Source of the DNA: a virus
Direction: 5' to 3' (one strand)
DNA length: 16,100 nt
Virus genome (UHGV): UHGV-0340572
Positions 2,707 through 16,100 of the stretch are shown piece by piece. Made by a program: the position numbers and the translations under genes. The notes under the pieces are model-generated. The model was not told the DNA's origin, did not search any database, and saw nothing but the letters and a program-made list of their open reading frames with translations. Position 1 is the stretch's first letter; each line of letters opens with the position of its first letter.

Positions 2707-4872
2707 ATGGCCGACGAAAACAGACTCAATTCCATTCTGTGTAAGTTTGACGCAGACTGGATGGCGAGCGATGAAGCCAGAACCGAGGCGACAAATGACC
2801 TGTATTTTAGCCGAGTGTCGCAATGGGATGACTGGCTATCAAACTACACCACCCTGCAATATCGCGGACAATTTGATGTTGTTCGCCCGGTGGTCAGGAA
2901 GCTGGTCGCAGAGATGCGCCGGAACCCTATCGACGTTCTATTCAGACCAAAAGACGGAGCTAATCCTGATGCTGCCGATGTGCTGATGGGGATGTATCGT
3001 ACTGATATGCGCCATAACACGGCAAAAATTGCCGTTAACGTTGGCGTTCGTGAGCAGATAGAGTCTGGCGTTGGCGCATGGCGTCTGGTCACGCAGTACG
3101 AAGACAACGACCCAACAAGCAACAATCAGGTAATCCGACGCCTTCCAATCCATGAAGCCTGCTCACACGTCATATGGGACGCCAACAGCAAGCAGATGGA
3201 TAAGAGCGACGCTAAGCACTGCACGGTGATTAACGCCTTGTCACGCAATGGCTGGAAAGAGTTCGCAGAGGATTACGGTATTGATCCGGATACCTTGCCA
3301 TCTTTCCAGAATCCGAACGATACATGGCTGTTTCCGTGGGTATCGAATGATGTCGTCTACGTCGCTGAGTATTACGAGGTAGAAGAGAAGAAGGAGAAAG
3401 TCTTCATCTACCGCGACCCGCTGACAGGTGAGCCGGTCAGCTATTACCAGCAGGATATCAAAGACGTCATCGACGACCTGGCTAATCGTGGATTCATTAA
3501 GGTAGCAGAGCGTAAGGTCAAGCGTCGGCGTGTGTATAAGTCGATCATCACCTGCACGCAGATACTGAAAGACCGCGAGAAGATAGCCGGAGAGCATATC
3601 CCAATCGTTCCTGTGTACGGCGAATGGTCATTCGCTGGTGACAAGGAGTGCTACGAAGGTGTGGTAAGGCTGACGAAAGACGGTCAACGCCTTCGTAACA
3701 TGATCATGTCATTCAACGCCGATATTGTTGCTCGTTCACCGAAGAAGAAACCGACCTTCTTTCCTGAGCAAATCGAAGGCTACGAATACATGTACGGTGG
3801 AAATGATGACTATCCGTACTATTTGCAGAACAAGACCGATGAAAACGGTAATGACCTGCCGATTGGTCCAATCTCCTACATGGAAAACCCTGAAGTGCCG
3901 CAAGCCAACGCTTACATGCTTGAGGCTGCCACCAACGCAGTGAAAGAGGTGGCTAGTCTTGGCGTGGATGCGCAGGCGGCAAATGGTCAGGTCGCTTTCG
4001 ATACCGTCAATCAACTGAACATGCGGGCAGACCTTGAGACATACGTGTTTCAGGATAACCTGGCTACCGCAATGCGACGTGATGGCGAGATTTATGCCTC
4101 AATGGTCAATGATATTTATGACGTTCCTCGTCATGTAACGCTGACACTTGAAGATGGAAGCGAGAAAGACGTTCAACTCTATGCGCAAGTTGTCGATTAC
4201 CAGTCCGGCAATGTGGTCACACTCAACGACATTCGCGGTCGCTATGAGTGCTATACAGACGTTGGACCATCCTTCCAGAGCATGAAGGAACAGAATCGCG
4301 CAGAGATTCAGGAGTTGCTAACAAAGGTTCCGCAAGGTACTCCAGAGTTCCAGATGCTGATGCTGCAATACTTCACGCTGCTTGACGGTAAAGGCGTCGA
4401 GATGATGCGAGAGTACGCGAACAAGCAACTGGTGATGATGGGGCTGAAGAAACCAGAAACACCTGAAGAGATGGAGATGGTACAGCAGGCTCAACAGCAG
4501 CCGCAGCAGCCATCAGCAGAGCAAATTCAGGCTCAGGGTATCCTTCTGCAAGGTCAGGCTGAATTGCTCAAGGCAGAGAACCAACAGGCGCAGATTCAGG
4601 TTGAAGCCGCCAAGGTTGAAGCCCAAAACCAACTCAACGCCGCGAAGATTGCAGAAATCTTCAACAATATGGACCTCGACAAGCAGGCAGAACTGCGTGA
4701 GTACCTCAAGCTCGTAGGTCAATTCCAGCAACAGCGCAGCAAAGACGCTCGCGCTAACGCTGAGCTGCTTCTTAAAGATGCAGACCAGACTCATTCACAA
4801 CGCATGGATTTCGCGAATCTTATGCGTCAAGTTCAAATCCCCTCCGGCGGAGTAGCCGAGACACCTCAATAA
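2707..4872 (+). CDS. 1: portal protein (P22 gp1-like), 721 aa
   Basis: ATG directly follows the TAA stop of gene 2. Size (721 aa vs about 725 in P22), N-terminus [28 protein letters not shown] and a Gln-rich helical C-terminal extension are typical of the P22 portal. Confidence 0.93.
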
Positions 4873-4885
4873 GAGAGAGTTAACC

Positions 4886-5797
4886 ATGGACCAAACCACC
4901 GACATTCAGGCTTCTGAAGAATTAACCCTGCCCGGCAATCATGCAGCGGCATCTGCTGATGGCTTAGTTGTCGATAATGCCAACGACAACGCAGGTCAGG
5001 AAGAAGGCTTCGAGATTGTCCTGAAAGACGATGAGAAACCAAAACAAGACCCGGCAACTAATGCTGAATTTGCCCGTCGCCGCATCGAACGCAAACGCCA
5101 GCGTGAGCTTGAGCAACAGATGGAAGCGGTTAAGCGGGGAGAGTTGCCGGAGCACCTGCGGGTGAACCCTGAGTTACCAAAACAACCAGACCCTAACGAT
5201 TATCTTTCCGAAGACGCACTGGCTAAGTACGACTATGACCAGAGCCGCGCACTGGCTGCCTTCCAGCAGGCAAATAGTGAATGGCAGATCAAGGCTATGG
5301 ACGCACGAAGCCAGGCTGTCGCCGAGCAGGGTCGCAAAACTCAGGAGTTCACCCAGCAATCAGCGCAATATGTCGAGGCAGCCCGTAAGCACTACGACGC
5401 AGCGGAAAAGCTCAATATCCCTGACTATCAGGAGAAAGAGGATGCATTCATGCAACTGGTGCCGCCAGCAGTCGGTGCCGACATCATGCGCCTCTTCCCG
5501 GAGAAATCCGCTGCTCTCATGTATCACCTTGGTGCTAATCCTGAGAAAACACGCCAGTTGCTGGCGATGGACGGGCAATCCGCGCTGATTGAACTCACTC
5601 GACTGTCAGAACGTTTAACTCTCAAGCCTCGAGCCAAGCCTGTTTCAGAAGCCCCGTTACCTGATGAACCCATTCAGGGACACGCTGTTGCTGCAAATAT
5701 CTCTGCGATTGAAAAGCAGATGGAAGCGGCAGCAAACAAAGGGGATGTAGAGACGTACCGCAAGCTCAAGGCGCAACTGAATAAAGGAATTCGATAA
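4886..5797 (+). CDS. 8: scaffolding protein (P22 gp8-like), 303 aa
   Basis: 303 aa, the same length as P22 gp8; highly charged, helical composition; positioned between portal and coat; its stop overlaps the coat start (TAATG). Confidence 0.88.
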
Positions 5798-7092
5798 TGG
5801 CATTAAATGAAGGTCAACTGGTCACGTATGCTCTGGATGAAATCATCGAAACCGTCCAGAACCTGACGCCAATGGCGTCCAAAGTGACAAAATACACCCC
5901 TCCGGCAGAATCCATGCAGCGTTCAAGCAACACCGTGTGGATGCCTGTTGAGCAGGAAGCGCCAACCCAGACTGGCTGGGATTTAACTGGCAAAGCAACC
6001 GGGATTCTGGAGCTCTCCGTGAAATGCAACATGGGCGATCCGGATAACGATTTCTTCGAGCTTCGTGCAGATGACCTGCGTGATGAGCGTTCTTACCGTC
6101 GCCGCATCCAGGCATCCGCCAAAAAACTGGCGAATAACATTGAGTCAGCGATTGCCAAACAGGCAACTGAAATGGGCTCGCTTGTTGTTCACGATACCCG
6201 CGCAATTGGTCCATCTACTGGCCTGTCTGGCTGGGATTTTGTGTCTGATGCAGAGCGCCTGATGTTCTCCCGTGAGCTAAACCGCGACATGGGCATCAGT
6301 TACTTCCTGAACCCTGACGATTACCGCAAAGCAGGCCGCAATCTTGTAGATGGTGACATCTTCGGGCGCGTTCCTGAAGAAGCGTATCGCAACGGTACTA
6401 TTCAGCGTCAGATTGCTGGCTTTGATGAAATTCTTCGCTCACCGAAACTTCCGGCAGTTACCAAGTCAACCGCTACTGGTGTAACTGTTTCTGGTGCGCA
6501 GAAGTTTAAGCCCCAGGCATACACTCTTGATACCGATGGTAACAAAGAGAACGTTGACAACCGTGTTGCAACGGTGACCGTATCCTCCACCACCGGATTT
6601 AAGCGCGGCGACAAAATCAGCTTCACTGGTGTGAAATTCCTGTCTCAGATGGCGAAGAACGTGCTAACTGATGATGCGACTTTCTCAATCACCCGTGTGA
6701 TCGATAGTACTCACATCGAAATCACGCCGAAGCCGATTGCACTTGATGACGCGTCACTGACAAAAGAAGAGAAGGCTTACGCTAACGTAAACACCTCTCT
6801 TGCTGATACCACTCCGGTAAACGTTCTGAACGTGGCAACAACCACCGCTAACGTGTTCTGGGCTGATGACTCAATCCGCCTGCTGTCTCAGCCGATCCCG
6901 GTAACCCATGAACTGTTTGCTGGTATGAAAACGTCTTCCTTCAGCATTCCTGGCATTGGTGTTAACGGCATCTTCGCAACGCAGGGCGATATCAACACTC
7001 TGTCTGGTAAGTGCCGTATTGCTGTGTGGTATTCAGCATGTGCTGTACGACCAGAGGCAATTGGTGTTGGTCTGCCTAACCAGACTGCGTGA
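5797..7092 (+). CDS. 5: major coat protein (P22 gp5-like), 431 aa
   Basis: N-terminus [25 protein letters not shown] and size match P22 coat protein (about 430 aa); RBS AAAGGA upstream; followed by a strong terminator. Confidence 0.93.
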
Positions 7093-7097
7093 TAACC

Positions 7098-7122
7098 AGA
7101 GGGAGCTTCGGCTCCCTTTTTT
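7098..7122 (+). terminator. rho-independent terminator downstream of the coat gene
   Basis: GGGAGC (7101-7106), loop TTCG, GCTCCC (7111-7116), then TTTTTT (7117-7122); the stem can extend by flanking A/T pairs. GC-rich stem with a UUCG tetraloop and a U-tract, 6 nt after the coat stop codon. Confidence 0.75.
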
Positions 7123-7136
7123 ATCTGGAGACAAGC

Positions 7137-7373
7137 ATGACACACATGATATTTCGTCATGGCGACATGAAGAAATGGAAAGGCGTTGGATACGACTTTG
7201 AAATCGTGAAAGCCGAAGAGCTTCAGGAATATCTGGATGCTGGCTGGTTTGCACATCCTGATGATCTTCTGAAGGATGTTGCAGAGCCAGAGCCAGAGCC
7301 AGAAGAAAAACAGCGTAAAAAGCCTGGTCGAAAACCTAAGGCGGCAGCAGATGAACCTGACAACGAAGGGTGA
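7137..7373 (+). CDS. small hypothetical protein (78 aa) between coat and gp4, with an acidic EPEPEPE repeat and a basic KKPGRKPK tail
   Basis: ATG at 7137 preceded by GGAG (7127-7130) with a 6-nt spacer, placed just after the terminator. The track ORF 7089-7373 extends upstream across the terminator and is unlikely to be the true start. The 3' end overlaps the gp4 start by 23 nt. A small ORF at this position is, as far as I recall, present in P22 too, but I cannot confirm identity. Confidence 0.5.
7282..7305 (+). repeat. hexanucleotide tandem repeat, (CAGAGC)x3 plus a degenerate fourth unit
   Basis: CAGAGCCAGAGCCAGAGCCAGAAG read directly; encodes the EPEPEPE stretch of the small ORF. Confidence 0.8.
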
Positions 7374-7851
7374 TTTAGTTCTTGCGGCATTACGTAAGCT
7401 CGGTGTGGCATCAAATGCCACGTTAACCGATGTCGAACCTCAGTCCATGGAAGACGGCGTCAACGACCTTGAAATGATGATGGCTGAATGGCTTGGCGGT
7501 GATGCGTCACCTGGTATCAACGTTGGCTACATTTTTGCTGATGCAGATGTCGCTCCGGATCCGGGCGATGAGCACGGTTTATCAAATAACGCTATCAATG
7601 CCGTCATTTTCAACCTTGCCTGCCGAATTGCTCCAGATTATGCGCTGGAAGCGTCTGCAAAACTTATAACCACTGCCAGATACGGGAAAGAGCGACTCGT
7701 CAAACTGTCTGCAATGGACAGAGCAAAAGCCGCAAAATGTAAGTCCGGTTATCCAAATCGTATGCCTGTTGGCAGTGGAAACCAGTTGGCGAAGTGGAAC
7801 GGTTGGAATTACTTCCACCGAAAGGAACCTTGCGATAACGGGAGCGAATAA
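7351..7851 (+). CDS. 4: portal-closure / head-completion protein (P22 gp4-like), 166 aa
   Basis: The track ORF starts at 7276, but the ATG at 7351 ([36 protein letters not shown]...) gives 166 aa, matching P22 gp4 length and the N-terminal region I recall. The 7276 ATG has GAAGG directly abutting it with no spacer. Confidence 0.85.
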
Positions 7852-9269
7852 TGCCGATTCAGCAACTTCCGCTTATGAAAGGTGTCGGCAAAGACTTTCG
7901 AAACGCCGACTATATCGACTATCTGCCAGTGAATATGTTGGCTACACCAAAAGAAATCCTGAACAGCAGCGGATATCTTCGCTCATTCCCGGGCATTGCC
8001 AAACGTTCTGATGTAAACGGCGTATCGCGCGGAGTCGAGTACAACATGGCGCAGAATGCTGTTTATCGCGTGTGTGGTGGCAAGTTGTATAAGGGCGAAA
8101 GTGAAGTCGGCGATGTTGCCGGAAGTGGTCGTGTATCATTGGCTCATGGTCGGACATCACAGGCTGTAGGCGTTAATGGTCAACTGGTCGAGTATCGCTA
8201 TGATGGCACGGTTAAAACCGTCTCAAACTGGCCTACAGACAGCGGATTCACACAGTACGAGTTAGGCTCAGTCCGCGACATTACGCGCTTACGTGGCCGT
8301 TATGCGTGGTCAAAAGACGGCACTGATTCATGGTTTATCACTGACCTTGAAGACGAATCACATCCTGACCGATACAGCGCACAATATCGCGCAGAATCGC
8401 AGCCTGACGGCATCATCGGCATCGGAACATGGCGAGACTTCATCGTCTGTTTTGGTTCATCTACGATTGAGTATTTTTCCCTGACTGGTGCAACCACCGT
8501 TGGTGCCGCTTTGTATGTCGCCCAGCCATCGTTGATGGTGCAAAAAGGAATCGCCGGAACCTACTGCAAAACGCAGTTTTCTGATTCCTATGCGTTCATC
8601 AGCAATCCGGCAACAGGTGCTCCGTCTGTATACATCATCGGCTCCGGTCAGGTATCACCAATCGCCAGCGCGAGCATTGAGAAAATACTACGCTCCTACA
8701 CTGCTGATGAACTGGCTGATGGCGTGATGGAATCGTTGCGGTTTGATGCTCATGAGTTGCTGATTATTCACCTGCCGCGCCATGTTCTTGTTTACGACGC
8801 ATCTTCAAGCGCCAATGGTCCGCAATGGTGTGTGTTGAAAACAGGCCTGTATGACGATGTGTACCGCGCTATCGACTTCATTTACGAAGGCAATCAGATA
8901 ACGTGCGGCGATAAGCTGGAGTCCGTGACCGGGAAATTGCAATTCGACATCAGCAGCCAGTACGACAAGCAACAGGAACACCTGCTGTTTACTCCACTGT
9001 TCAAAGCGGATAACGCCAGAGTTTTCGACCTTGAGGTTGAATCGTCAACTGGCGTTGCGCAGTATGCTGACCGCCTTTTTCTCTCTGCAACCACTGACGG
9101 CATCAATTACGGGCGTGAGCAGATGATTGAGCAGAATGAACCGTTCGTTTACGACAAACGCGTTTTGTGGAAGCGAGTAGGGCGCATCAGGAAAAATGTC
9201 GGCTTCAAATTGCGCGTTATCACGAAGTCACCTGTCACTCTGTCTGGCTGCCAGATAAGGATTGAGTAA
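7851..9269 (+). CDS. 10: tail hub protein (P22 gp10-like), 472 aa
   Basis: 472 aa, the same as P22 gp10; start overlaps the gp4 stop (TAATG); conserved gene order 4-10-26. Confidence 0.9.
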
Positions 9270-10117
9270 TGGCGGATTCGAATCTCAATGTGCCGGTAAT
9301 CATCCAGGCTACGCGGCTCGACACATCAGTCCTTCCACGCAATATCTTCTCGCAGTCATATCTGCTGTACGTTATCGCACAGGGTACTGATGTTGGTAAC
9401 GTGGCGAACAAGGCCAACGAGGCCGGACAGGGCGCTTATGATGCACAGGTCAGAAACGATGAGCAGGATGTGATTCTCGCTGACCATGAGCAGCGAATTT
9501 CTGCTGCGGAAGCAACGCTTGTTAATCATGAGGAGCGAATCAGCCAGGCAGAATCAACTCTTCAGGAACATGAAACACGAATAGCTCAGAATGAAAGCGA
9601 TATTGCGTCGCTTGATACCAGAGTTCAGTCGCTGGAATCGCAGGTTTCAGACCATGAAACGCGCATCGATGCTCTGAAGTATGCCACTACTCGCAAGAAG
9701 TCAGAGGTTGTTTACTCTGGCGTATCTGTAACCATCCCGACAGCGCCGACCAACCTTGTTAGCCTACTGAAAACGCTCACGCCGTCATCCGGCACGTTGG
9801 CACCATTCTTCGACACCGTTAACAACAAGATGGTTGTGTTCAACGAGAACAAAACCTTGTTCTTCAAGCTGTCGATCGTCGGGACGTGGCCCAGCGGAAC
9901 CGCAAACAGGTCAATGCAGCTAACATTTTCCGGTTCTGTTCCTGACACACTGGTAAGCAGTCGCAACTCGGCGACAACAACCGACAACATCCTGTTAGCT
10001 ACGTTCTTCAGCGTGGATAAAGACGGCTTTCTTGCCACAAATGGCAGTACGTTAACCATTCAGTCAAATGGGGCGGCGTTTACTGCCACAACCATCAAAA
10101 TCATTGCGGAGCAGTGA
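9269..10117 (+). CDS. 26: tail needle protein (gp26-like) with C-terminal knob extension, 282 aa
   Basis: N-terminus [43 protein letters not shown] closely resembles the P22 gp26 N-terminus as I recall it, followed by a coiled-coil segment with repeated HExRI motifs. At 282 aa it is about 50 residues longer than P22 gp26 (233 aa), with a beta-rich C-terminal domain, as in Sf6-type needles. Confidence 0.85.
9482..9691 (+). repeat. 42-nt (14-codon) periodic repeat in the needle coiled-coil region
   Basis: Units beginning at 9482 (DHEQRIS), 9524 (NHEERIS), 9566 (EHETRIA) and 9650 (DHETRID) are spaced 42, 42 and 84 nt apart; imperfect at the nucleotide level. Confidence 0.55.
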
Positions 10118-10574: not shown

Positions 10575-11267
10575 ATGTTATATGCATTTAAGCTGGGCAG
10601 AAAACTGCGCGGCGAGGAACCTTATTGCCCTGAAAAGGGTGGAAAAGGTGGCAGTTCTGATAAAAGCGCAAAGTATGCCGCAGAAGCTCAGAAGTATGCA
10701 GCAGACCTGCAAAATCAGCAGTGGCAGACGATCATGAAAAACCTTGCTCCGTTCACGCCTCTTGCGGAGCAGTATGTTAACCAGTTGCAGAATCTTTCCA
10801 GTTTAGAAGGTCAGGGGCAGGCACTTAATCAGTATTACAACTCTCAGCAGTATAAAGACCTTGCAGGTCAGGCGCGTTACCAGAGTCTTGCTGCTGCGGA
10901 GGCGACGGGTGGACTTGGTTCGACAGCCACAAGCAATCAACTGGCTACGATCGCGCCGACACTCGGTCAGTCTTGGTTATCAAACCAGATGAGCAATTAC
11001 AACAATCTGGCAAACGTTGGGCTTGGTGCGCTGCAAGGTCAGGCAAACGCCGGGCAGACGTACGCCAACAACATGAGCAGCATTGCACAGCAAAGCGCAG
11101 CACTTGCCGCTGCTAATGCCAATAAACCATCAAGTCTTCAGACTGCAATTAGCGGTGGCACGTCTGGTGCGATTGCCGGTGCAGGTCTTGCCAGCCTTTT
11201 GGGAACATCAACGCCTTGGGGCGCTGGCATTGGTGCTGGTATCGGATTGCTTGGCTCGTTGTTTTAA
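10575..11267 (+). CDS. 7: ejection (E) protein gp7-like, 230 aa
   Basis: 230 aa vs 229 in P22 gp7; RBS GGGAG 6 nt upstream; Gln/Ala-rich with a Gly-rich hydrophobic C-terminus (AGAGLASLLG...GAGIGAGIGLLGSLF); conserved position. Confidence 0.85.
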   Translation: MLYAFKLGRKLRGEEPYCPEKGGKGGSSDKSAKYAAEAQKYAADLQNQQWQTIMKNLAPFTPLAEQYVNQLQNLSSLEGQGQALNQYYNSQQYKDLAGQARYQSLAAAEATGGLGSTATSNQLATIAPTLGQSWLSNQMSNYNNLANVGLGALQGQANAGQTYANNMSSIAQQSAALAAANANKPSSLQTAISGGTSGAIAGAGLASLLGTSTPWGAGIGAGIGLLGSLF

Positions 11268-11276
11268 GGGGTAATC

Positions 11277-12665
11277 ATGGCTACTTGGCAAGGAACAAAC
11301 GGCGGATTGTTGGCTGGTATCGGCGGCGTCAACTCAAACGCTCCGAGCGTAAATGACATCGGCAATACGCTTCAGCTTATCAGGCAGAACAATGATATTG
11401 AGCGTTCAGGCGCTAACAATGTTGGGCTGACTGCTTTGCAAGGCCTTTCAGGTATTGCGGGGGTGTTTCAGCAGGAAAAGCAGGCTCAGCGGCAGAAAGA
11501 ATTTCAGCAGGCATACGCTAATGCTTATGCGTCTGGTGATCGCGGTGCTTTGCGTCAGTTGGCTACTCAATATCCAGAACAGATTGAATCCGTTCGTAAA
11601 GGCATGGGATTCATTGATGAAGACCAGCGTAATTCTATCGGCACCTTAGCGGCTGGCGCACGCCTTGCGTCATCGTCTCCAGAAGCAATGCAATCATGGC
11701 TGCAAAACAACGCCAAGGAACTGACTCGCGTCGGTGTTGACCCTAACAGCGTTGCTCAGATGTATCAGCAGAACCCTTCAGGATTTGGTGAGTTTGTTGA
11801 TCACCTTGGAATGGCTGCTCTTGGTCCAATTGATTACTTCAATGTTCAGGACAAGATGGCTGGTCGTGAGATTGATCGCGGGAAACTTGCAGAGACAATC
11901 CGCAGCAATCAGGCTGGCGAGGCGCTAACAGCACGAGGCCAGAACATCACGATGCGCGGTCAGGACTTATCTGCTTCTACTGCGCGACGAGGTCAGGATT
12001 TGGCAATGCAGCGAGCGTCAACAAGAGGAATCGCTGGGAATGATGAGCGTACAGTTCAGTTATCAGATGGCAGAACTGTAACGGTAGGCGGGAAGCTTCA
12101 TGGCGCTGGGGCTAATGCGTTCTACGAAGGCATCGACAACGATGGGAATATGGTTCGCGTCCCTGCCAGTTCAATCGCTGCGCCTGCAACATCGTCTGCA
12201 TCAGCACAAAACTATGCCATGAAGAAGGATATCGACGCGATCGCAAATGCAGACGCTTCTGCTCTCGATTTCATGACAGGAATGACAGGTGGTGCAGGTA
12301 ATCCAGCAATTGGTGCTGATGTTCGCAGCCGATTAACGGGAAAAGAGCAGCGCCAGTTATATAACTCAGCACAACGTATTCAGGGCAGAATGCAGAATCA
12401 GGGTGTGGCGGCAGCAAGGGACATGGGTGCCAGTGGTATTAACACCGTTGCAGAAGCGAAGATGTATTTTCAGGGGATGCCGCAGGTTGACTATTCAAGC
12501 CCGGAGGCTATGCAGCAGTCGATTCGTGAGATTCAGGAATACACCAACAATTACAACCAACAATATAACGTTAATGTTGGTAAATCTCAGCGGCAGCAAT
12601 CTCAACCTGCACAGGTATCACAGCCAGCAGCCAGCAGTAACTTTTCTTCACTATGGGGTGATTAA
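11277..12665 (+). CDS. 20: ejection protein gp20-like, 462 aa
   Basis: Position after gene 7 and size near P22 gp20 (471 aa); RBS AAGGGG 5 nt upstream; stop overlaps the next start (TAATG). Confidence 0.82.
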
Positions 12666-14751: not shown

Positions 14752-15012
14752 TTAGTTGCTGTCTTTTTTATATAGCTCCTTGAGCGTATCAAAGACAATT
14801 TTCTTAACCATATCAGATTGTTGTTCTGCCATACGCTCTGCATCGTCAATGTAAACTGATGCAGAGCTTTGTTTATCCAATGATTCCTCAATCGCTGCAA
14901 TTATCTCTGAGTTCAGCGACCTGTTATTCATCTTCGCACGCTGCTTAATTTTCGCGTGAAGTTCATGCGGAAGTCTCAAGTGAAACTGCGCCTCGTCGTA
15001 TTTGCTGTACAT
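14752..15012 (-). CDS. mnt: Mnt-like ribbon-helix-helix repressor, 86 aa
   Basis: The track ORF (14752-15510, -) is over-extended across the tailspike start. From the internal ATG at 15012 the protein MYSKYDEAQFHLRLPHELHAKIKQRAKMNNRSLNSEIIAAIEESL...DDAERMAEQQSDMVKKIVFDTLKELYKK matches P22 Mnt as I recall it (HFNFRMPMEVREKLKFRAEANGRSMNSELLQIVQDAL...NDAERLADEQSELVKKMVFDTLKDLYKK). GAGG lies 8 nt upstream on the - strand. Confidence 0.8.
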   Translation of the reverse strand: MYSKYDEAQFHLRLPHELHAKIKQRAKMNNRSLNSEIIAAIEESLDKQSSASVYIDDAERMAEQQSDMVKKIVFDTLKELYKKDSN

Positions 15013-15147
15013 CCTTGATGCCTCACCAGTTGGGTGGAATGGCATCGTAAAACCTACTGTACAAATCAACAATCGTACCGTTTCGGTATGCAACAAACAC
15101 CAACCGTAGCCACGCTGCGGCGATTCCTTGTATCTGGAGCAAATTAA
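15013..15147. promoter_or_regulatory. divergent intergenic region between mnt and tailspike; probable promoter/operator region
   Basis: 135-bp non-coding gap between divergently oriented genes. Contains the inverted repeat TACCG-TTT-CGGTA (15076-15088), the palindromic hexamer TGTACA (15058-15063) and the imperfect 17-bp palindrome CCGTAGCCACGCTGCGG (15103-15119). I could not pick out convincing -35/-10 hexamers by eye. Confidence 0.4.
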
Positions 15148-16100
15148 ATGACAGACATTACAGCCAATGTGATTGTATCGATGCCTTCGCAACTCTTCAC
15201 TATGGCGCGTTCTTTTAAAGCTGTAGCCAATGGCAAAATTTATATCGGTAAAATTGACACTGACCCTGTAAATCCAGAAAACCAGATTCAGGTTTATGTG
15301 GAGAACGAAGACGGCTCTCACGTTCCTGTTTCGCAACCAATCATCATTAATGCTGCTGGATATCCGGTATATAACGGACAGATTGCCAAATTCGTAACTG
15401 AGCAAGGCCATTCTATGGCTGTATATGATGCGTATGGCACGCAGCAGTTCTATTTCCCTAATGTGCTGAAGTACGACCCTGATCAATTTGAGATTAGGCT
15501 TTCTAATCAAGACGGCGCTGGTCTTGTTGGGATTATGCCATATGGCACGGTACAGGATGCCATCAAATGGGTTGTCCCCGAGGTATTCCCCGGAAGTAAT
15601 GCGTCAGAAAAATTACAGGCAGCTGTAAATTATGCGGTTGCAAACAAAACGAGAGTTGTAGCATCAGGTGTGTACGATGTAACGGCCCCCGTCACCATCC
15701 CAGGAGACATCATTATCGATGCTTCTACTGGAGAATTTACCTTCAATGGCATTGATTATATTTTCCATCCGCTTGGCGCAAAATCAGTAGAGATTATCGG
15801 TGGTAAGTTCACCGCAAATGCATACCACACCCAGCGTCCTCAGGTAATTTTCAATGATTACCCTGATGGGCTGGCGAATTTGCCAACGCGAGTGGTGATA
15901 AAAGATATGCAATGCTTTAACTGCGGTGTTGGCTACATCATGGTTAACTGTCAGGACCCAACCAGCGTACATGTCTCAGTTGATAATAACTACTGCAAGA
16001 CTGATGACAACACAGATCAGTATATCTCTGATGCAGGAATGTCAGGTGAACAGGGTGAGGTATATCCATATCTGATGATTCTTGGCAACACGACTGCATC
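15148..16100 (+). CDS. 9: tailspike protein, 5' portion (truncated at window end); P22-type N-terminal head-binding domain with a different receptor-binding domain
   Basis: ATG at 15148 with GGAG 9 nt upstream. Translation MTDITANVIVSMPSQLFTMARSFKAVANGKIYIGKIDTDPVNPENQIQVY...NVLKYDPDQF matches the conserved P22-family tailspike head-binding domain. After about residue 113 the sequence (IRLSNQDGAGLVGIMPYGTVQDAIKWV...) no longer resembles P22 gp9 as I recall it. Open to the window end, so absent from the ORF track. Confidence 0.85.
   Translation, partial: MTDITANVIVSMPSQLFTMARSFKAVANGKIYIGKIDTDPVNPENQIQVYVENEDGSHVPVSQPIIINAAGYPVYNGQIAKFVTEQGHSMAVYDAYGTQQFYFPNVLKYDPDQFEIRLSNQDGAGLVGIMPYGTVQDAIKWVVPEVFPGSNASEKLQAAVNYAVANKTRVVASGVYDVTAPVTIPGDIIIDASTGEFTFNGIDYIFHPLGAKSVEIIGGKFTANAYHTQRPQVIFNDYPDGLANLPTRVVIKDMQCFNCGVGYIMVNCQDPTSVHVSVDNNYCKTDDNTDQYISDAGMSGEQGEVYPYLMILGNTTA

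Follow-up and report, generated by a model that had tools for sequence, protein, structure and literature searches.

A conserved hairpin and an orf69-family gene with a repeat-encoded Glu-Pro linker between the coat gene and gene 4 of a P22-like phage

Gene content of the coat–gene 4 junction

The window (the whole 16,100-nt stretch of virus genome UHGV-0340572 that was analyzed) reads as a late operon for virion assembly, from a P22-like phage or prophage (Lederbergvirus). Pfam matches in it comprise the scaffold, the coat, gp4, gp3 and the tail-needle knob, while a 901-nt query across the locus under study found the Lederbergvirus phages APC_JM3.2, IME10, Louie, Bas106, Dewey and HZ41 at 95–99% DNA identity. 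The following features were located at the junction:

5797–7092, + strand: coat (major capsid) gene, homologue of P22 gp5, 431 aa (ORF list; Pfam P22_CoatProtein, E-value = 9.8e-166)
7098–7124, + strand: intrinsic-terminator-type hairpin (top terminator-like site, fold energy, covariation)
7127–7130, + strand: Shine-Dalgarno GGAG of the small ORF, with a 6-nt spacer to the ATG at 7137 (read from the sequence)
7137–7373, + strand: small gene, 78 aa, homologue of P22 orf69 (PHROG_1175; phrog_1175 profile, homologues, codon pattern)
7137–7280, + strand: predicted N-terminal folded domain of the small protein, residues 1–48, with invariant G36-W37...P41 (AlphaFold2, family alignments)
7282–7303, + strand: hexanucleotide microsatellite, 3.7 copies of CAGAGC, encoding in frame (Glu-Pro)3 of a predicted disordered acidic linker (TRF, 100% matches)
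7308–7346, + strand: basic proline-rich tail, residues 58–70 (family consensus KKxGRKPKA)
7337–7344, + strand: gene 4 Shine-Dalgarno TAAGGCGG, with a 6-nt spacer, lying within small-ORF codons for Pro-Lys-Ala-Ala (octamer shared by relatives)
7351–7851, + strand: gene 4 (head-completion/head-tail adaptor), 166 aa (Pfam P22_Tail-4, E-value = 1.1e-58)

The coat gene ends with TGA at 7090–7092, which is followed by TAA, and the 44 nt between it and the small ORF, occupied by the hairpin, exceed every other intergenic gap in the operon. Together, the hairpin and the small gene between coat and gene 4 are a known module, not recognized as such in the first-pass annotation, which GenBank records name "stem_loop" and orf69 in P22, "t coat" and gene 6 in Sf6, and "tGP5" and hkbT in HK620. 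Synteny is wide, as the order of coat, small ORF and gene 4, in which the small ORF runs into gene 4 at its 3' end, is also found in P22, L, Proteus phage V3, Sf6, HK620, APSE-2 and a Vibrio phage.

Hairpin downstream of the coat gene

The extended stem spans 7098–7119 and has nine pairs in the terminator scan, five of them G-C. Its GC core is formed by GGGAGC (7101–7106) and GCTCCC (7111–7116), the loop is TTCG (7107–7110) and a run of six T (7117–7122) precedes AT. By sequence criteria this is the anatomy of an intrinsic terminator, namely a G+C-rich stem, a short loop and an adjoining uridine tract. The first-pass annotation had placed such a hairpin 6 nt after the coat stop; the hairpin is present, while the offset has to be corrected, the extended stem beginning 5 nt and the GC core 8 nt after the stop. 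It folds at -21.1 kcal/mol against -12.0 ± 2.6 for shuffled sequences (z = -3.55), and one of 200 shuffles was equally stable. The window as a whole has no excess of terminator-like sites (17 against an expected 15.5), but this one is the best match in it and the sole strong one on the + strand of the operon. The case for the hairpin is therefore made by its rank, by its filling the largest gap and by its conservation with covariation, and not by site enrichment. An Rfam search returned only a chance snoRNA match (E-value = 0.76).

Comparison with other phages points to a hairpin that is evidently maintained by selection. Its sequence is invariant in the six close phages, apart from one T>C within the T-run, and the structure is kept in nine P22-like phages despite different stem sequences, with compensatory changes at four pairs. 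In the alignment of these nine, 90.5% of the cells are paired, compared with 35–68% when the partner is slid, and none of 500 shuffles reached the covariation score. Seven of the nine have a T-rich tract behind the stem, the two phages without a good U-tract being phiSG1 and Aeromonas 4_4512. A stem-loop or terminator is annotated at the same position in P22, Sf6, HK620 and L.

As to its function, the most likely job of the hairpin would be a step-down in mRNA abundance after two proteins that are needed in hundreds of copies. This could be achieved by partial termination of the transcript, by keeping exonucleases away from the upstream mRNA's 3' end, or by both, and read-through past the hairpin would suffice for genes 4, 10, 26 and others. 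It is plausible that the hairpin sets the ratio of coat and scaffold to the downstream genes. The same role in this ratio was proposed by authors of P22-like genomes, who call the role of intra-operon terminators not known (PMC8022706).

How far transcripts would actually end at the hairpin is a separate matter. Lambdoid late transcription starts at the one late promoter and is modified by a Q-type antiterminator (gp23 in P22), which makes it resist intrinsic terminators. Since late transcription is antiterminated, the effect of the hairpin may be partial or that of a stabilizer of the mRNA 3' end, and actual termination at it may be weak. At the extreme there would be no termination, the antiterminated polymerase reading through and the hairpin serving as a barrier to 3' exonucleases that stabilizes the processed scaffold/coat mRNA. 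Antitermination by Q/gp23 is established in lambdoid late operons, the UUCG tetraloop is an extra-stable one and the label in the P22 GenBank record is that of a stem-loop. Furthermore, phiSG1 and Aeromonas 4_4512 are distant relatives that retain the stem without a good U-tract, and therefore fit a stabilizing hairpin better than a terminator. However, the T-rich tract that most of the nine phages keep would be needless for a pure stability element, and the records of Sf6, HK620 and L speak of a terminator, so that we consider a hairpin without any terminating activity somewhat unlikely, though worth keeping in view. Termination and stabilization are not mutually exclusive as mechanisms. In the papers searched on epsilon34, phage L, BTP1, Sf6 and P22 sRNAs, neither transcript 3'-end nor proteomic data for the locus were found.

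The canonical terminator anatomy could also be taken to mean that the hairpin efficiently ends a separate head-gene transcript and that gene 4 and the following genes are expressed from a promoter of their own. Nevertheless, only 12 nt lie between the end of the T-rich tail (7124) and the ATG of the small ORF, no sigma-70-like site was found on the + strand from 5911 to 8177, and the genome paper on phage L gives P22 just one late promoter (PMC8022706). We therefore regard a separate transcript as highly improbable.

The small gene and its product

A well-placed ribosome-binding site and an ORF of 78 codons had been called at first pass, and both hold; the GGAG and the ATG lie at the positions listed above and the translation is identical. 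A GGAG, GAGG or AAGG also precedes the homologous ORF in P22, L, Proteus phage V3, Sf6, APSE-2 and a Vibrio phage. Residues 1–76 of the product match the phrog_1175 profile (E-value = 1.9e-37), with 39% identity to P22 orf69 and 43% to the homologue of Proteus phage V3. A word-indexed search of 90%-identity clusters yielded 369 homologues at E ≤ 0.001, while an exhaustive HMMER search yielded 30 clusters at 50% identity, and homologues with 33–50% identity retain G36, W37 and P41. The first-pass annotation had staked the gene on codon-level conservation, and this is what the alleles display: among nine close ones, ten variable codons carry synonymous changes only and two carry replacements, nine of the 12 variable sites fall at the third codon position, and homologues occupy the same position in P22-like phages. 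By homology and codon pattern, the small ORF is evidently a genuine translated gene of the P22 orf69/PHROG_1175 family. A 177-aa ORF on the minus strand (6888–7421) was ruled out, as the codon-position pattern follows the + frame.

The small protein is predicted to be tripartite, consisting of a folded N-terminal domain of about 45 residues, a disordered acidic Glu-Pro linker and a basic, proline-rich tail. AlphaFold2 models a beta-hairpin (strands 2–14 and 17–25) and helices at 26–34 and 41–49, with a pLDDT of 85–92 over residues 1–40, and predicts disorder after about residue 50, the linker having a pLDDT of about 48–57.

Copy number of the hexamer repeat

The proposed CAGAGC repeat encoding an acidic Glu-Pro tail is confirmed, its 3.7 copies being perfect, and the suggestion that it could vary in number while staying in frame is borne out by relatives. 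The window and the six close phages, which are 95.6–98.5% identical to it over the 901-nt query, have 2, 3, 5, 5, 6, 8 and 8 copies (a range of 2–8 in the close phages), and the locus is present in 217 of 5426 complete E. coli genomes, where the match spans imply about 1–33 copies. Even E. coli matches whose flanks are at least 99% identical to the window have from 9 to 20 copies. The array in locus L016 was checked directly and consists of 33.7 perfect copies (100% matches) encoding (EP)33. Homologues are 76–98 aa long, in nearly all cases in steps of 2 aa. At the position of the linker, orf186 of phage L and E. coli prophages carry a WDGH domain instead (PF25311, E-value = 2.2e-40).

Such a microsatellite would expand and contract through replication slippage. 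As the repeat unit is 6 nt, all length changes are in frame, and as the linker is a predicted disordered spacer, anything from one to 33 Glu-Pro units, and even a whole WDGH domain in alleles of the ST64T/L type, is tolerated. We read this variation as a largely neutral polymorphism of linker length and not as an on/off switch. A more ambitious reading would make the array an adaptive tuning knob, whose length alters how active the protein is or how far it reaches, or else gene 4 translation, under host-specific selection. The very wide range and the differing copy numbers among prophages with nearly identical flanks are in its favor, as is the recurrence of Glu-Pro-rich linkers at that place in many family members of 50% identity or less, which suggests that an EP-type spacer is itself favored. 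On the other hand, changes that are all in frame leave no room for on/off switching, the segment is predicted to be disordered and can be replaced by the unrelated WDGH domain, P22 orf69 does without any repeat, and long arrays of 100% purity are a product of neutral microsatellite dynamics. Adaptive tuning therefore seems unlikely to us, and largely neutral variation is the reading retained below.

Start of gene 4 and its overlap with the small ORF

The product of gene 4 is 58.8% identical to P22 gp4 over residues 1–165. Its start at 7351 lies behind TAAGGCGG with a 6-nt spacer and corresponds to residue 1 of P22 gp4 in the alignment. The same octamer, with a spacer of 5–6 nt, is found before gene 4 in P22, L, Sf6 and HK620, while Proteus phage V3 has AAAGGCGG. 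A gene 4 of 191 aa beginning at ATG 7276, as given in some records, was rejected for want of a usable Shine-Dalgarno spacing. The end of the small ORF overlaps the start of gene 4, as had been noted before, by 23 nt in the window, and eight phages conserve an overlap of 17–26 nt. A ribosome that completes the small ORF would cross the gene 4 start and may thereby help its translation; as gene 4 has a strong Shine-Dalgarno of its own, translational coupling is possible but not required.

The conservation of this overlap in the eight phages, together with the embedded Shine-Dalgarno, raises the question of whether the small ORF might be a translated leader only, which unfolds the mRNA and brings ribosomes to gene 4 past the hairpin while its peptide has no function. 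The middle of the protein tolerates anything from a single repeat to 33 or a whole inserted domain, and no function has been assigned to the family, P22 orf69 being recorded as "unknown" and L orf186 as "detailed function unknown". The N-terminal domain, however, is under purifying selection according to the synonymous and replacement codons counted above, its invariant G-W...P and its hydrophobic pattern persist down to about 33% identity, its predicted fold is confident, and gene 4 has a strong Shine-Dalgarno of its own. A functionless leader peptide is consequently improbable, and we retain a small gene with a selected product.

Possible function of the small protein

Searches for a function were largely unproductive. 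The only Pfam lead was DUF7302 (PF23976), which the small protein reached with 14.6 bits (E-value = 0.045), Proteus phage V3 with 17.6 bits and another relative (P0142) with 15.7 bits, all below the gathering cutoff of 24.9. NCBIfam and PADLOC gave no match, a profile search with the N-terminal domain for informative domain fusions gave only relatives named "hypothetical protein", and a literature search for "orf69 P22" gave only unrelated ORF69s. The name "dihydrolipoamide acetyltransferase" borne by one UniRef entry (P0162) was set aside as a probable artefact of Glu-Pro composition.

A DNA-binding role is weakly hinted at by two parts of the sequence. The tail of the window's protein, KKPGRKPK, is AT-hook-like, but it has no RGRP core, is not canonical and gives no match to Pfam AT_hook (PF02178). 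RGRP is present in two relatives (P0133 and P0147), whose AT_hook scores of 14.0 and 11.6 bits (E-values = 0.047 and 0.29) stay below the 17.4 cutoff, and many relatives have tails with PGPKP without arginine. The conservation of the tail is in part explained by the gene 4 Shine-Dalgarno embedded there. The second hint comes from the N-terminal domain, which in a phmmer search of 1.84 billion proteins matched four stretches of a protein, P0140 (E-value = 2e-5), and whose profile aligned to the repeats of that protein with an hhalign probability of 96.3% over 28 columns. P0140 is homing-endonuclease-like, with GIY-YIG (E-value = 1.3e-5) and NUMOD3 (E-value = 3.6e-6) domains and five repeats of the pattern vY..g....V...EL..YL..GW, whose binding to DNA is assumed; neither a Pfam model nor a solved structure was found for the repeat. 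No nuclease catalytic domain was found by Pfam in the 78-aa protein itself.

Our best guess, made with little confidence, is that it serves late as a non-essential accessory protein and would contact nucleic acid through its tail and N-terminal domain. A bolder version would see in the orf69 family an unrecognized late DNA-binding protein that acts in packaging or head completion, combining a module of homing-endonuclease type, an AT-hook-like tail and a Glu-Pro rod with a length dictated by the fast-mutating microsatellite. If this were true, the repeat would supply populations with a standing range of reach; we think it rather doubtful.

Interpretation and use of the locus

The locus is probably best understood as the junction between the procapsid and head-completion genes of the P22 group, holding a selected hairpin, a translated gene of the orf69 family and a largely neutral, slippage-prone Glu-Pro linker. 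It is an ordinary junction, already catalogued in P22-like late operons, and yet it is mis-called in several close genomes. Of the five close phage genomes with annotation, three (four records out of six) omit the small gene and extend gene 4 upstream over the repeat. The less ordinary detail is the six-base repeat of the Glu-Pro linker, whose copy number in E. coli prophages goes from 1 to 33; it is a handy natural typing marker for P22-like prophages. The repeat-length alleles also offer a natural series of linker lengths for testing the small protein once an assay exists.

Comparison with known systems

The closest counterpart is P22 itself (BK000583), where the stem_loop at 6102–6119 and orf69 occupy the same place between coat gene 5 and gene 4. 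There, as in the window, a GC hairpin directly follows the coat stop and precedes a T-rich tract, although the stem sequence differs through compensatory changes. P22 orf69 (69 aa) shares the N-terminal domain, a basic KGRKPKA tail, the embedded TAAGGCGG and the overlap with gene 4, but its linker is PVEADDV, without the hexamer repeat, and its overlap is 17 nt compared with 23 in the window. Sf6 gene 6 and HK620 hkbT likewise follow an annotated terminator after the coat gene, as ORFs of 61 aa with a 26-nt overlap and the shared gene 4 Shine-Dalgarno. Their products are only about 27% identical to the small protein in a MAFFT alignment, have GF for the GW motif and lack both the WG hairpin segment and the Glu-Pro linker; their homology to it is plausible. 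In ST64T and phage L, orf186 shares the N-terminal domain, a KKPGPKPKA tail, the locus and the hairpin with the window, but a 98-residue WDGH domain (PF25311) stands where the window has its Glu-Pro linker. The phrog_3769 profile also matches residues 1–49 of the window's small protein.

Stem-loops after the major capsid genes of lambda and HK97 are named in the P22 GenBank note. In T7, the strong hairpin T-phi lies after gene 10, behind the gene of the most abundant virion protein and in the middle of a late transcription unit. T7 relies on an RNA polymerase of its own, and experiments have measured partial termination at T-phi, whereas the window would be transcribed by the host polymerase, presumably antiterminated. 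As for the linker, the (EP)n/(KP)n rod of TonB is an extended, non-globular spacer of alternating Glu-Pro dipeptides, and the EP repeats of trypanosome procyclin come to mind through one relative with a sub-threshold match to Pfam procyclin PARP (E-value = 0.017). With TonB and procyclin the likeness is one of composition and not of homology, and here the Glu-Pro segment lies between a 45-residue domain and a basic tail, in a phage protein that is cytoplasmic.

Gene order and close relatives

The window is the late operon of a P22-like phage. Its gene order was read from the ORF list together with Pfam matches, and the large terminase and portal positions were named by synteny with an annotated E. 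coli prophage:

3-245, DUF2560 protein
247-735, + strand, ORF of 162 aa without a Pfam match, between the DUF2560 and small-terminase genes
741-1229, small terminase gp3
1207-2706, large terminase position
2707-4872, portal position
4886-5797, scaffold (Pfam E = 1.7e-179)
5797-7092, coat (Pfam E = 9.8e-166)
7137-7373, + strand, small ORF
7351-7851, gene 4 (P22_Tail-4, E = 1.1e-58)
7851-9269, gene-10 position
9269-10117, Sf6-type tail-needle-knob protein
downstream of the tail-needle-knob gene, ejection-protein positions
14752-15510, - strand, ORF with Arc (E = 6e-14) and Mnt (E = 1.5e-13) domains towards its C-terminus

The Arc and Mnt domains mark the region after the ejection genes as immI-like; the TTG start listed for this 252-aa ORF is probably too far upstream. 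In the otherwise syntenic prophage of E. coli 90-9281, just a 59-aa hypothetical gene (L017:1489-1668) is found in place of the 162-aa ORF. The ejection-protein genes hold two more short imperfect tandem repeats on the + strand, at 10664-10705 (21 nt x2.0) and 11918-11958 (16 nt x2.6). Over 901 nt around the small-ORF locus, six Escherichia phages (APC_JM3.2, IME10, Louie, Bas106, Dewey and HZ41) are 95.6-98.5% identical to the window, and the records that give a taxonomy place their phages in Lederbergvirus.

A conserved hairpin after the coat gene

A conserved RNA hairpin with the anatomy of a terminator lies immediately 3' of the coat gene, and a conserved, translated-looking gene follows it. 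All elements of the first-pass annotation were found. The coat stop TGA (7090-7092) is succeeded by TAA, and the hairpin core consists of GGGAGC (7101-7106), a UUCG loop and GCUCCC (7111-7116), followed by T6 (7117-7122); A-U and G-U pairs can extend the stem to 7098-7119. A consensus terminator scan of the window ranked this site top (9 pairs, 5 of them G-C), and its fold reached -21.1 kcal/mol versus -12.0 +/- 2.6 for dinucleotide shuffles (z = -3.55). Terminator-like sites were not enriched across the window (17 versus 15.5 in shuffled sequence), so that the case for the coat hairpin rests on its quality, position and conservation. The 44-nt gap that it occupies together with the ribosome-binding site of the small ORF is the largest among the tightly packed late genes.

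We compared the sequence just 3' of the coat stop in nine P22-like phages (the window phage, Proteus V3, P22, L, Sf6, Sodalis phiSG1, APSE-2, Vibrio 1.003.O and Aeromonas 4_4512), all nine of which carry a GC hairpin with a tetraloop. In their alignment a 7-pair helix was paired in 90.5% of cells, versus 35-68% when the 3' partner was slid by 1-3 columns, both sides had changed in four helix pairs (e.g., A-U, G-C and C-G at one position), and none of 500 column shuffles reached the observed covariation score. These results show that the RNA structure is both real and conserved, and the substitution pattern indicates that it is under selection. Seven phages have a T-rich tract 3' of the stem, which points to a terminator-type element in most members, not all; phiSG1 and the Aeromonas phage lack the tract.

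The small ORF as a gene

Downstream of the hairpin, GGAG (7127-7130) stands 6 nt upstream of the ATG at 7137, and translation gives exactly the 78 residues quoted previously; each phage examined has a Shine-Dalgarno sequence ahead of its homologous ORF. The product matches PHROG_1175 (E = 1.9e-37), and its residues 1-49 match the 186-position profile phrog_3769. A MAFFT alignment puts its identity at 39% with P22 orf69, 43% with the Proteus phage homologue and about 27% with Sf6 gp6 and HK620 HkbT. RefSeq already has an identical protein (WP_042837736.1). With a word-indexed search, 369 proteins (90%-identity clusters) reached E <= 0.001; every one is named hypothetical, and most come from E. 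coli, Salmonella and other Enterobacterales. The family is narrow: when 1.84 billion cluster representatives were searched exhaustively with HMMER, no more than 30 clusters at 50% identity came up. In representatives 33-50% identical to the window protein, others being closer, G36, W37 and P41 are invariant, with the hydrophobic pattern retained. Codon-level conservation also holds: when nine close alleles were compared over codons 1-49, 12 codons varied, 10 with synonymous changes only and two with a changed residue, and nine of 12 variable sites fall at the third position. Judged from these sequence comparisons, the small ORF is a real gene.

The family alignment has three parts, namely a folded N-terminal domain, a variable acidic Pro-rich linker and a basic tail (consensus KK-x-G-R-K-P-K-A) with a short acidic end. 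The AlphaFold2 model, built on a 28-sequence alignment, has a long beta-hairpin (2-14, 17-25) and helices at 26-34 and 41-49, with pLDDT of 85-92 for residues 1-40 and about 48-57 from about residue 50 on. One homologue (P0001) carries a 13-residue internal duplication at the end of the N-terminal domain.

Libraries searched with the product returned no function. The exhaustive search matched four separate stretches of a homing-endonuclease-like protein of 428 aa that has GIY-YIG and NUMOD3 domains (P0140; E = 2e-5), which contains five repeats of about 30 residues, of the form vY..g....V...EL..YL..GW, covered by no Pfam model; their alignment matched the N-terminal domain profile with an hhalign probability of 96.3% over 28 columns. 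In several relatives the tail contains a true Arg-Gly-Arg-Pro, and matches to Pfam AT_hook stay below threshold (E = 0.047 and 0.29). Both leads are weak and point towards nucleic-acid binding. That the product might bind DNA is a tentative suggestion, held at low confidence because the window tail (PGRKP) is no canonical AT-hook, many relatives have PGPKP, and neither a described function nor a solved structure was found for the endonuclease repeat.

A hypervariable repeat in the linker

The disordered linker is encoded by a hypervariable in-frame microsatellite, CAGAGC x3.7 at 7282-7303 (100% matches, Tandem Repeats Finder). The copy-number variation predicted earlier was borne out: when the window and the six close phages were aligned, whole hexamers were the only length differences, with two copies in Bas106, three in the window, five in Louie and HZ41, six in Dewey and eight in APC_JM3.2 and IME10. 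The APC_JM3.2 record marks a "repeat_region" here. The locus is present in 217 of 5426 complete E. coli genomes, where full-length match spans imply about 1-33 copies, and matches with flanks 99.0-99.2% identical to the window have 9-20. The strain 98195 prophage, checked directly, has 33.7 perfect copies, giving (Glu-Pro)33 in a 138-aa protein. Homologous protein clusters span 76-98 aa, nearly all in two-residue steps, with mostly 2 or 4 Glu-Pro units and some with 10-12; some arrays are broken by ES, DP, EQ or ET. A 6-nt unit always preserves the frame, and repeat change is length variation, not an on/off switch.

Many members no more than 50% identical to the window protein have Glu-Pro runs at the same place, and ST64T/L-type alleles (phage L orf186, L011:157-717; E. 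coli matches H150-H160), also common in E. coli prophages, carry a 98-residue WDGH domain (PF25311, E = 2.2e-40) at the linker site, between the same N-terminal domain and tail. The linker is thus a permissive site. The simplest reading of the differences in repeat number is neutral slippage within a spacer. A mosaic protein (P0135) joins the L-type N-terminal domain and WDGH domain to the window-type tail. None of the literature searched mentions the WDGH domain, nor did we find there the extent of Glu-Pro polymorphism or the use of the same linker for domain insertion.

Three further records deserve mention. A 153-aa homologue (P0121) leaves the frame after the repeat and continues through gene 4 in the wrong frame, being a frameshift allele or an assembly error. 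An 84-aa orf69-family homologue (P0162) bears the UniRef name "Dihydrolipoamide acetyltransferase", probably because its Glu-Pro linker is similar in composition to the linkers of E2 lipoyl domains. A 4.83-Mb record labelled E. coli "DH5alpha" (NZ_CP026085.1, match H139) holds the P22-like prophage locus with about 6 copies; such a prophage would not be expected in a K-12 laboratory strain, which points to mislabelling or lysogenisation.

Overlap with gene 4 and possible roles

The translation signals of gene 4 lie within the 3' end of the small gene, and the overlap noted in the first-pass annotation measures 23 nt (17-26 nt across eight phages). The tail codons for Pro-Lys-Ala-Ala (CCT AAG GCG GCA) carry the gene-4 Shine-Dalgarno octamer TAAGGCGG (7337-7344), 6 nt upstream of the ATG at 7351 and common to P22, L, Sf6 and HK620; part of the tail is therefore constrained by something other than the protein. 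Four phages (that of the window, Proteus V3, Sf6 and HK620) have the small-ORF stop codon inside the conserved Lys-Gly-Asp/Glu codons of gene 4.

P22 virions need coat and scaffold in hundreds of copies, and gp4, gp10 and gp26 in a dozen or fewer. The hairpin may make mRNA for the genes beyond coat and scaffold scarcer or shorter-lived, which it would do by terminating some transcripts, by protecting the 3' end of the upstream mRNA, or in both ways; termination is probably incomplete, because lambdoid late transcription is antiterminated. Ribosomes on the small ORF would cross the gene-4 start and may aid initiation there, although gene 4 is itself equipped with a good Shine-Dalgarno sequence. 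Of the interpretation first offered for this locus, repeat variation and coding conservation were tested and stand, while the regulatory roles of hairpin and overlap are only plausible.

Annotation of the module in related and reference phages

The small gene is missing from four of six annotated close-phage records (both IME10 records, Louie and Dewey), HZ41 being without annotation; only APC_JM3.2 and Bas106 call it as in P22. In those four, gene 4 begins at an upstream ATG (window 7276) and crosses the hexamer repeat in another frame, the equivalent of window 7276-7851 being:

L004:1977-2582, IME10
L002:1977-2564, Louie
L005:1977-2570, Dewey

The Louie and Dewey records contain in addition a 45-aa ORF (locus 1765-1902) spanning the coat stop and hairpin. 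In APSE-2 (NC_011551), an unannotated 63-aa ORF (L013:714-905) lies behind a hairpin, between coat and P27, which it overlaps by 20 nt, and its product resembles Sf6 gp6 (MERKSVFAWSDNAAGYVQAVIVTRDFPEFEKRGFVSS...). The matching 294-nt gap of Sodalis phiSG1 has the hairpin and no obvious ORF.

For intra-operon terminators of this kind, the phage L genome paper (PMC8022706) suggests that they either terminate partially or stop transcription that is not antiterminated, and it labels orf186 "detailed function unknown". The module of coat hairpin and small gene is already annotated in reference phages, and that of the window is the same: P22 (BK000583) has a "stem_loop" 5 nt past the coat stop and then "orf69, unknown, putative", overlapping gene 4; phage L has predicted terminators and then orf186; Sf6 has the terminator "t coat" and then "gene 6 protein"; and HK620 has "tGP5" followed by hkbT.
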